From: Promethearchaeota archaeon
GTDB lineage: Archaea; Asgardarchaeota; Thorarchaeia; Thorarchaeales; Thorarchaeaceae
Length of the DNA: 30,979 nucleotides
Direction of reading: 5' to 3'
Assembly: GCA_027031765.1 (NCBI GenBank)
Contig: JALVPN010000110.1
Coordinates: 1 to 30,979 of the forward strand
The notes under the pieces: model-generated
Seen by the model: only the letters and a program-made list of their open reading frames with translations
Told to the model about the DNA's origin: nothing
Database searches by the model: none
Position numbers and translations under genes: made by a program
Shown: piece by piece, positions 1 through 26,408 of the stretch
Layout of the letters: each line of letters begins with the position of its first letter
How positions within the stretch are numbered: position 1 is the stretch's first letter

Positions 1-540
1 CCGAATGAGAGCCAGACTGACGATCTTGCTCGACGAGCTGAGAGCTGGTGCATGGCCATCGTAAATTCGTGCCGTGAGGTATCAGCTTAAGTGCTGCAAC
101 GAATGAGATCCCTGCCACCTAGTTGCCAGCCGGGGGCCACGGCCCTGACGGGGCACACTAGGGGGACTGCCGGCGATAAGTCGGAGGAAGGTGGGGGCCA
201 CGGTAGGTCAGTATGCCGCGATATGGGCGGGGCCACACGCGTGCTACAATGGCGAGGACAATGCGTTACGACACCGAAAGGTGAAGTCAATCGCCAAACC
301 TCGTCGTAGTCGGAATCGCGGGTTGGAACTCACCCGCGTGAACCTGGAATCCCTAGTATCCGCGTGTCACTATCGCGCGGAGAATATGTCCCTGCTTCTT
401 GCACACACCGCCCATCGCTCCATGCGAGCGGGTCTGGGGTGAGGCGCCGTCCACCGGGCGGCGACGAATCTTGGGCTCGCAAGTAGGGAGAAGTTGTAAC
501 AAGGTATCCGTAGCGGAAGCTGCGGATGGATCACCTCCTT
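1..540 (+). rRNA. rrs: 16S rRNA, 3' ~540 nt (about E. coli positions 1000-1542), archaeal and divergent
   Basis: Conserved blocks GGTGCATGGCC, GTGCTACAATGG, GGAAGGTGGGG, GCACACACCGCCC, h45 GGAA tetraloop and the anti-SD tail GGATCACCTCCT ending at 539-540. Truncated by the window start. Confidence 0.98.
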
Positions 541-861
541 TGCGTGCGCCGTGAAGAACTCGTTTTGACACGGCGTGGTGAAGATCACAGCGAACGGATG
601 GGTGTACAGGGACTTACCCACGCGCCGCTGTTGAGCACCCCATTTTTCAACAACACCCCTGACAGTCTGTTTCTGCGAGTACTGACAGTTGTCCACGGTC
701 ACCGCCAATGCGTGTCCTTACTGCTCTTGGTTGTCCTGATGAGCAGTGCTCGGCCGTCTGTCCACCGTCTGTCCCGCTGGCATGGTCTGAGGTGCGTGGC
801 ACAGGATGTACCGGAGTGTGGTCGGGACATCACCCACACGATATGCCCCAGACTGCGCAGC

Positions 862-2802
862 CTACTCAAGATATGTCGGGCATGGCCATCCATCGCACCC
901 CAGACAGTTTGTACAGCGGTCTGGGTCGACTACTATCTGCCCATTCTGCAGGCTGAGAGCCCCATGTCTGCACTTTGGGATGCAGGAGCCGCACCCCTGA
1001 CAGAAGAGTGCACGCCGCACAACCCGTTCCACCTGCCCTAGGAGCACCATTACCCCGTCTTTGCCAGGTCCACGGACTGTCACAGACCCAGAGCTGAAGA
1101 GCATGACCATGTACCTGTCCCGTCTTGTATGCACGACACCCAGGTCTTCAGAGTACCGCGTCGGACCGAATACTGGCATGAGCTGGGCGAGCCGGGCCAG
1201 GTCAAGGCCCTGGGTGAACTGCCCCTCCACGCTGTAGCCAGCTGATACGCATGGCGAGACTCCCCTGACCACCTCCAGCTGCAACTCCTGCTTTGGGCTG
1301 CCCCTTTCCGGTGCAATCTTGACTCCCATCTCCCTGGCGAGTTTCAGCTGGCCACTCGGCAGGCGTTTCCATCTCCAGAAGCCCAGGTCAGCCCACTCTC
1401 GCGGGAGGCCGTGTTCCTCAGCGAACCTGTACAGGTAGCCTGTCCAGCGCGAGTACATCTGAGGATGTGTCCTCGACAGCCCCTCAAGCTCCTCTAGGGG
1501 CGACGATGGACAGAGGTAGCAACCGAGCCTGTGGTAGCCCTGCAGGTACAGCGGGTTGAACTCCGCACGCTCGCGGAATATGTATAGCCACACCTCAAGG
1601 GCATTCCAGTTCCGGATTGGGTTCGCTGAGGTCTGGCCCGGCACCCACGGGTTGTTCGTCACCCTTGGTTCAACGGAGCGTTGGAAGGACTCGAGCCTCC
1701 GTTGCCCCATGAAACTCAGGCTCTGCGAGCCAAGTGCTTCGGCAATGGTCGTTGCTGCGGGCCCCAGTTTCAGGACTTTGCAGCACCATCTGAAGTCCCG
1801 TGCGGGTGGTCCAAATGTTGCCAGCGACTCCCAGAAACGGTCGCCTGCCTCCTTTCCAACTATCTCCACACCCCTCTTGTGCGCGAACTCGTGCACATAC
1901 GCCACGGTCTCCGGGAACTCCAGTCCCGTGTTGATGAAGAAGAGCGGGGGGCTGTACCCGAGTGCCTTCTCCACTAGGAGATATGCCACAAGAGAGTCCT
2001 TCCCACCACTGAACCCGACGACGACGGGGGCCTCTATCCGCTCTACAGTCCGCCTGATGAACGCCAGTGCCTCCCTTTCTGCTCTGCGGAGGTCATTTTC
2101 GTTGGCCCTGACGGCGTCGTCCCATGTGGCACTCTTCGGGTTGACCTTTGGTGGTGTCGGGTCCGCAGCCTCGCGCACTTTGACCGCCACGCCACGTCCC
2201 CCAGCGGCAATCTCCACCCCTGTCATCCTTGCAGTCCCAACAGCGACGACCTCTCCCGAAGGTACTCTGACCCATACCTCATCGCCTACCGCCACTTGCG
2301 GGTCGCATGCCACCACGCCGGGCCGCAACAGGCTCGCGCCCTTCTTGAGGTATTCAAGCACCCCACTCTCACATACCACCCGCTTCCGGTTCGTGTACAG
2401 TGCTGCCCTCCGGGCCCCCTCAACCGTCGGGAGAAAGACATAGTGCCTTTCTGGGATGTCGAACCTGAGCCGTCCGACGATGTATCCATCGACCACTATC
2501 TCATACATCGCGTCCAGTGCGGGGATTTTGTTCATCACGACCGGCTTGTCTGATGGGACTAGATGTCTGCCCAGCTCTCTCCCGAGCTGTGCATCAACCG
2601 TGTCCCTGACCCTCCGGAGGTGACCATTCATTGCCGGAAACGGGTCTCCTGGTGGCGAGATCTCGACACGCCGCGGGGCCGCACCACAGACCGAGCAGGG
2701 CGACTGCGACACCCGCGGGACGTTGCACGTGTCGCACCAGAACAACCGTATTCTTGCGAGGAACGGTGGGTGGCCTCTCCGCGGTCTCCTTCTGCGCGCC
2801 AG
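862..2802 (-). CDS. PAPS reductase-family protein: N-terminal Zn-ribbon, PUA domain, PP-loop core, C-terminal 2x[4Fe-4S] ferredoxin
   Basis: WCDTC..CSVC ribbon; PUA-like (LKKGASLLRPGVV..VAVG.ARM); GFSGGKDS PP-loop; RWCC and CYLC; CxxCxxCxxxC and CxxCxxC at the C-terminus. The frame extends upstream of the track's TTG (2745) to a CTG at 2802 with AGGAG just upstream. Confidence 0.88.
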   Translation of the reverse strand: MARRRRPRRGHPPFLARIRLFWCDTCNVPRVSQSPCSVCGAAPRRVEISPPGDPFPAMNGHLRRVRDTVDAQLGRELGRHLVPSDKPVVMNKIPALDAMYEIVVDGYIVGRLRFDIPERHYVFLPTVEGARRAALYTNRKRVVCESGVLEYLKKGASLLRPGVVACDPQVAVGDEVWVRVPSGEVVAVGTARMTGVEIAAGGRGVAVKVREAADPTPPKVNPKSATWDDAVRANENDLRRAEREALAFIRRTVERIEAPVVVGFSGGKDSLVAYLLVEKALGYSPPLFFINTGLEFPETVAYVHEFAHKRGVEIVGKEAGDRFWESLATFGPPARDFRWCCKVLKLGPAATTIAEALGSQSLSFMGQRRLESFQRSVEPRVTNNPWVPGQTSANPIRNWNALEVWLYIFRERAEFNPLYLQGYHRLGCYLCPSSPLEELEGLSRTHPQMYSRWTGYLYRFAEEHGLPREWADLGFWRWKRLPSGQLKLAREMGVKIAPERGSPKQELQLEVVRGVSPCVSAGYSVEGQFTQGLDLARLAQLMPVFGPTRYSEDLGVVHTRRDRYMVMLFSSGSVTVRGPGKDGVMVLLGQVERVVRRALFCQGCGSCIPKCRHGALSLQNGQIVVDPDRCTNCLGCDGWPCPTYLE

Positions 2803-26301: not shown

Positions 26302-26408
26302 TGGTAGCCCCGTCCGGATTCGAACCGGAGTCGCTGGGGGTCTTCACCGGGGGCATCCCGCCCGACGGTACCAAAACCCAGTATGCTTGACCGCTACACC
26401 ACGGGGCT
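26302..26408 (-). tRNA. tRNA-Gln(UUG) with a 31-nt canonical intron and encoded CCA
   Basis: Acceptor stem AGCCCCG/CGGGGCT; anticodon stem CTGGG/CCCAG with loop TT-TTG-G|C; T-arm TCCGG-TTCGAAT-CCGGA; 107 nt total equals 76 + 31. Confidence 0.95.
26340..26370 (-). other. tRNA intron at position 37/38 forming a bulge-helix-bulge
   Basis: Central helix UUUU/GAAG (two G-U pairs), 3-nt bulges GG|U and AC|C, flanking ACCG/CGGU helix and a GGGC/GCCC hairpin. Confidence 0.9.

Follow-up and report, generated by a model that had tools for sequence, protein, structure and literature searches.

The 16S rRNA of an Asgard (Thorarchaeial) archaeon carries an A1405-U1496 base pair beside the decoding site, in place of the nearly invariant G1405-C1496. 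Our analysis confirms the swap at the sequence level. Among the genomes that we searched it is new for Asgard archaea, and it is not new to nature. The host genome is a metagenome-assembled genome (MAG) from a hydrothermal vent, which comprises 2.95 Mb in 229 contigs and is 95% complete. We analyzed positions 1-30979 of its contig C110, a stretch of 30,979 nt that we call the window. The contig starts within the 16S gene, whose 5' part (model positions 4-828) lies at the end of another contig of the same genome, C48.

The match of the window to the archaeal 16S model RF01959 scores 490 bits against a gathering threshold of 50, and its 5' truncation is simply the start of the contig (Table 1). 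The two strands at the top of helix 44 (h44) read CACACCGCCCATCGCTCC (window 404-421) and GGGAGAAGTTGTAAC (window 486-500). We anchored the E. coli numbering on the universal motifs CACCGCCCNUC and AAGUNGUAAC, and the result agrees with the pair list of PMC5774723. It upholds the numbering given in an earlier note on this DNA, in which A414, G417, and T495 correspond to 1405, 1408, and 1496. The note had also proposed that A414 and T495 form a pair. In the consensus structure of RF01959, these positions are the G in CCGUCA and the C in AAGUCGUAA, which are paired with each other, and the model treats the A-U of the window as a standard pair. The neighbors of this pair are intact: it sits between C1404-G1497 and U1406.U1495, next to which C1407-G1494 and A1492/A1493 are also unchanged. 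The fragment has the hallmarks of an archaeal small-subunit rRNA, i.e., A491/A492, helix 45 at 505-528, and CCUCC at 534-538.

Table 1. Features of the 16S rRNA fragment in the window, with E. coli numbering of the nucleotides
Feature	Window position	Strand	Basis
Archaeal 16S rRNA, 3' part	1-539	+	Rfam RF01959, 490 bits, E 3.8e-142, model 943-1478
Helix 44 (decoding-site helix; E. coli 1399-1504)	408-503	+	Rfam consensus structure
A at 1405 (G in nearly all ribosomes)	414	+	Alignment: G in 21/21 of the family and 8/8 other relatives in the phylum
U at 1496 (C in nearly all ribosomes), partner of 1405	495	+	Alignment: C in 20/20 of the family and 8/8 other relatives in the phylum
G at 1408, norm of the lineage	417	+	CCCGTCGCTCC in every relative read
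Decoding adenines A1492 and A1493, intact	491-492	+	Window sequence, Rfam alignment
C1409, U1410, C1411, C1412	418-421	+	Pair with G1491, A1490, G1489, G1488 (487-490), as in relatives
Helix 45, GGAA loop at 515-518	505-528	+	Rfam alignment
3' terminus GGAUCACCUCCU, anti-Shine-Dalgarno CCUCC at 534-538	528-539	+	Window sequence, Rfam

To place the two bases in their phylogenetic context, we aligned the 539 nt of the fragment with 29 relatives, 21 from its own family and 8 from other families of the phylum. The window has a base missing from all family members at only 3 of the 539 positions: 138, 414, and 495. Position 138 is a variable site. Position 414 is a G in 29 of 29 relatives, and position 495 is a C in all 28 relatives that cover it. 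The near-invariance of G1405-C1496 claimed in the note is correct. Positions 414 and 495 are the sole departures from otherwise invariant sites, and the two pair with each other. We estimate that a random second change would restore a Watson-Crick pair with A414 in about 1 of 1,600 cases (538 other sites times 3 bases). Hence, chance or random error is very unlikely, as the note had argued for a double compensatory change. The rest of h44 in the window also diverges from the nearest relatives (94% identity), and it does so at paired positions, as expected of a genuinely evolving rRNA. We also computed minimum-free-energy folds of the isolated helix. The top pairs are not formed in the A-U, G.U, or A.C versions, and the energy is 1 kcal/mol apart from that of the G-C version. 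Such folds are uninformative, as it is the tertiary context that holds the top of h44 in place.

The nucleotide at 1408 is a different matter. The note pointed to G1408 as the state of eukaryotic cytosolic ribosomes, but the base is no special trait of this ribosome. G1408 is found in 37 of 37 members of the family and in 8 of 8 relatives elsewhere in the phylum, and the 18-mer that contains it occurs in 37 other genomes of the family. This base was established before the split between archaea and eukaryotes, and it already disfavors many aminoglycosides (preprint 10.1101/2024.11.28.625670). G1408 is thus the norm of the lineage and is unconnected with the A-U swap.

Genomic context and other assemblies

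The MAG has a single match to the 16S region, and the 18-mer of the G variant is absent from its 229-contig assembly. The host may have a second, unassembled rRNA copy carrying G-C. Downstream of the 16S gene, we found neither a 23S rRNA nor a spacer tRNA in the 30 kb of window 540-30979, which implies that the rRNA genes are unlinked here. The tRNA gene at 26305-26408 (minus strand) in the flank carries 34 inserted nt in the region of its anticodon loop; it scores 51 bits with Rfam and is missed by ARAGORN. An open reading frame of 171 aa begins in the 3' end of the 16S gene (526-1041, plus strand) and is annotated on public contigs (L160:495-1010 and L161:694-1209). It has no Pfam match and is probably a spurious gene call. 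For another open reading frame of 627 aa (862-2745), whose start codon is probably wrong, the protein look-up gave no match.

The look-up of a flanking protein led us to two further public assemblies. In the first, the NCBI assembly GCA_029855965.1, contig JAGSHO010000342.1 matches the window without a difference for 15,817 nt, beginning at window position 32. In the second, the ENA assembly ERZ23491057, scaffold_7349 agrees fully with the window from position 302 onward, h44 and the adjoining flank included. Both carry A414 and T495 (L160 and L161, respectively). Upstream of 302, the ENA scaffold (L161:169-470) differs from window 1-301 at about 25 positions, mostly in variable helices, and must therefore be a separate assembly. 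The mismatch reflects either two 16S variants that share this 3' end or a chimeric join in one of the assemblies. The host organism was found in one sample only, and all three assemblies appear to derive from this one vent sample. The observation is thus independent of the assembler, but not of the sample.

We also searched the Logan contigs of the likely source run. The Logan contig with the flank comes from run SRR13622960, and the name of the ENA scaffold indicates sample SAMN10217873. Window 501-1600 is present there exactly, at a depth of 13.4, and the organism's own contig spans 501-1361. None of the Logan contigs of this run carries A414/T495. The only contigs covering these sites belong to relatives with G414/C495, which have depths of 20-54x and are more abundant than the host organism. 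As Logan contigs lose low-coverage alternative paths, their silence neither supports nor contradicts A414/T495. In three other runs, the Logan contigs gave just conserved pieces belonging to relatives. The support for the swap consists of assemblies from one sample, and this is the main residual doubt.

Distribution of the pair and insertions in related 16S genes

The family is represented by 86 species genomes. Of these, only the present one has the A form, and 37 of the other 85 have the G form. This genome is also the only one in the family with U1496 within an rRNA. The four other matches to GGGAGAAGTTGTAA in family genomes lie outside rRNA and are due to chance. A scan of 400 genomes of the phylum revealed no A form in any other rRNA. 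It returned 15-mer matches in two genomes (G227 and G076), which are chance occurrences in non-rRNA sequence.

The picture changes at larger scale. We scanned one genome per prokaryotic species with a query that fixes A1405 and leaves the bottom strand open. At least 119 species genomes have A1405 and, among the matches listed, 116 have U1496 and 3 have C1496. Judging by the record titles, the carriers among the matches listed include many Candidatus Iainarchaeum and other archaeal MAGs. Micrarchaeota, Forterrea, Amesbacteria, Dojkabacteria, Levyibacteriota, and Cardinium/Amoebophilaceae are also represented, the last of these with some complete genomes. There are also scattered MAGs of Proteobacteria, Chloroflexota, Acidimicrobiales, Leptonemataceae, and Puniceicoccales among the matches listed. 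Iainarchaeia, the class of the Iainarchaeum genome, have A in 53 of the 53 genomes that match a 17-mer motif of the site. The order of Ignisphaera has A in 2 of 38 genomes, in a G1408 context as in the window, and three metagenome contigs of the Ignisphaera clade also have A-U. We then looked at three individual genomes: an Iainarchaeum MAG, an Ignisphaera MAG, and a complete Cardinium chromosome. Each has one match to the site pattern, which is of the A form, and lacks the G form. Hence, working ribosomes use A1405-U1496. The pair is rare overall, has arisen many times, and serves for translation in whole lineages. In the MAGs L052, L054, and L075 (a Methanomassiliicoccales, a Dehalococcoidia, and an Amesbacteria), A1405 faces C1496 in an A.C mismatch. 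These could be evolutionary intermediates or errors.

These results also settle how new the pair is. The note had envisaged that it might already be widespread and documented in archaea. It is indeed widespread in public genomes, archaea included, as the Iainarchaeia and the clade in the order of Ignisphaera exemplify, and to this extent the novelty is lost. As for documentation, no account of A1405-U1496 as a natural pair turned up in the searchable papers.

The 16S genes of the relatives revealed several small insertions. In L006, L008, L009, L010, L015, L017, L019, L020, and L022, an insertion of exactly 30 nt lies between A1499/A1500 and C1501, in the core of the decoding center (e.g., L015:485-545). 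It forms a 9-bp hairpin with covariation, in which double changes preserve 6 of the 15 predicted pairs. In the predicted fold, the insert's 3' end pairs with the exon nucleotides U1495-C1496-G1497, and a bulge of 3 nt remains. These elements look like bulge-helix-bulge mini-introns, a putative assignment that follows from the predicted structure. The 16S of the window has no insert at this site. An insertion of a second type, of about 27-30 nt, lies between GGAUGGA and UCACCUCC, just 5' of the anti-Shine-Dalgarno sequence, in L007, L011, L014, L017, L019, L020, and L022 (e.g., L011:2047-2099). Here, the predicted pairing joins GGAUGGA of the exon to UCCAUC in the insert, with a covarying hairpin further inside, an arrangement that again resembles a bulge-helix-bulge.

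Other rearrangements affect single genomes. On the minus strand of L013 (relative G019), the GGAA loop of helix 45 has given way to three hairpins in tandem. One of these units (GCGTCACATTTCGTGGCGC) is nearly identical to the 1500-site insert of L008, an indication that the same small hairpin element sits at rRNA sites that vary between genomes. The 16S of our host has a 42-nt hairpin insertion after position 854 of the Rfam model (around E. coli 908; L161:38-81). It is upstream of the window and falls in the stretch missing between contigs C48 and C110 of the MAG. In relative G009 (L167, C9:9800-13800), the 16S end of ~45 nt (AACAAGG...GGATCACCTCCT) recurs three more times, each time with the same downstream trailer. 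These extra copies are spaced by 1.5-1.9 kb, lie apart from the real 16S gene, and are in a region without an Rfam match. Similar short matches are present in G015, G002, G027, and G025. We saw no such extra copies in the genome of the window.

Origin and meaning of the substitution

We think it likely that the swap is a genuine and tolerated compensatory substitution, nearly neutral, and one more independent origin of a variant that has been fixed in several lineages. G1405-C1496, near the top of h44, has been replaced in this lineage by one transition per strand, most likely through a G.U (or A.C) wobble intermediate followed by fixation. The Watson-Crick geometry is retained, so h44 and the neighboring decoding elements would keep their architecture and the ribosome would work normally. 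The chemistry of the major groove is altered: O6 of G gives way to N6H2 of A, and N4H2 of C to O4 of U, with N7 retained and one hydrogen bond lost. Neutrality and normal function are deduced from the other lineages with the pair. The note had suggested that an altered A-site may affect fidelity or drug sensitivity. The presence of an isosteric Watson-Crick swap in whole lineages argues against a large functional effect. Since whole clades carry the pair, an effect on fidelity appears less likely. An effect on the contacts of aminoglycoside- or hygromycin-type drugs appears plausible.

Two alternatives concern the identity of the molecule. A414/T495 might stem from a strain that lives alongside, from a variant of minor abundance, or from a chimeric 16S path, in which case the organism with the flanking genes would have another main rRNA. 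The contig does begin inside the 16S of a fragmented MAG, the window and the ENA scaffold do disagree upstream of 302, and the source run has the pair in no Logan contig while well-covered relatives show G/C there. Yet, this silence is not absence given the loss of low-coverage paths in Logan, and the three assemblies agree from 302 through h44 up to a unique flank. An assembler does not make up bases, and around 414 the k-mers hold the family-specific context CATGCGAGCGG. An artefact would also have to alter invariant sites at two places only, and in such a way that the two bases pair. We therefore regard an origin outside the main rRNA of this organism as unlikely. The other alternative is that of a diverged or decaying extra copy of the rRNA, either non-functional or a specialised paralogue. 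It could explain why neither a 23S nor a spacer tRNA is found within 30 kb of the gene, and a MAG may hide further copies. However, in several relatives the flanks that we read likewise have no 23S immediately downstream of the 16S, and a genome that is 95% complete has a single match to the region. With the other invariant positions, the decoding adenines, helix 45, and the anti-Shine-Dalgarno tail all intact, an extra copy of this kind is very improbable.

A further alternative accepts the substitution as genuine and gives it an adaptive cause. Under this hypothesis, the swap was selected because it removes the contacts of natural compounds that bind h44 and resemble either hygromycin or the aminoglycosides with a 4,6-disubstituted deoxystreptamine (4,6-DOS), or the target of a G1405-directed modification. 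The note had described G1405 as the contact of gentamicin-class aminoglycosides and as the target of ArmA/Rmt methylation, and the literature bears this out. Ring III of the 4,6-DOS drugs directly contacts G1405 (O6/N7) and C1496 (PMC12104382; PMC12391297), m7G1405 blocks them (PMC12391297), and the hygromycin B site as listed in PMC5774723 includes the 1405-1496 pair. The recurrence of the swap in many separate lineages would also fit with selection. However, G1408 already disfavors many aminoglycosides, and only 1 of the 38 species of the family has the swap. Many of the carrier groups (DPANN, CPR bacteria, and Cardinium endosymbionts) have small genomes or are host-associated, and their rRNA evolves fast. 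This points to drift over selection. A recurrent, selected reshaping of the major groove at the top of h44, by which ribosomes escape such compounds or enzymes, is thus an improbable account. If it were true, this Thorarchaeon would be the first Asgard example, in addition to its eukaryote-like G1408.

The window alone has minor weight: it adds one more lineage that swapped G-C for A-U in a conserved helix and left the surroundings undisturbed. The wider result is that the 'near-universal' G1405-C1496 has been replaced in whole lineages, namely the Iainarchaeia (apparently class-wide), Cardinium endosymbionts, and several CPR groups. These lineages are natural tests of the variation of the aminoglycoside/hygromycin pocket that is compatible with decoding. 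They also call for caution with probes, primers, and tables of drug-site conservation that presume G1405.

Comparison with known systems

The methyltransferases ArmA, Rmt, and Sgm modify nucleotide 1405 to m7G on the same (Hoogsteen) face where ring III binds. They are bacterial enzymes, acquired or encoded by producers, that methylate a G. In contrast, the base and its partner are themselves replaced in the window, a change that involves no enzyme. The same pair has also been altered on purpose, in what is the closest experimental precedent: to define the decoding center, Cunningham, Nurse, Weitzmann, and Ofengand reportedly made E. coli 16S mutants at C1404, G1405, C1496, G1497, and U1498 (1993, Biochemistry 32:7172). 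Those were bacterial laboratory ribosomes with A1408, whereas the window has a natural archaeal variant with G1408. The change C1496U is reported to confer resistance to hygromycin B in M. smegmatis.

The eukaryotic cytosolic 18S rRNA shares G1408 with the window (10.1101/2024.11.28.625670). The likeness is partial, since the eukaryote-type site of humans and yeast combines G1408 with A1491. The window has the former (G417), but its position 1491 is a G as in bacteria (G490, paired with C418, i.e., C1409).

The closest parallels are the natural carriers of the pair. The Ignisphaera clade shares with the window the A-U pair, G1408, and an identical top-strand motif, CCCAUCGCUCC. Iainarchaeia, Cardinium/Amoebophilaceae, Amesbacteria, and other CPR have the same A-U pair among conserved neighboring decoding nucleotides. 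In Iainarchaeia the pair is apparently class-wide, and most of the other carriers have A1408, unlike the G1408 of the window. The window differs from all these carriers by its independent origin in a different phylum, where it is found in a single species of a family that otherwise has G-C.
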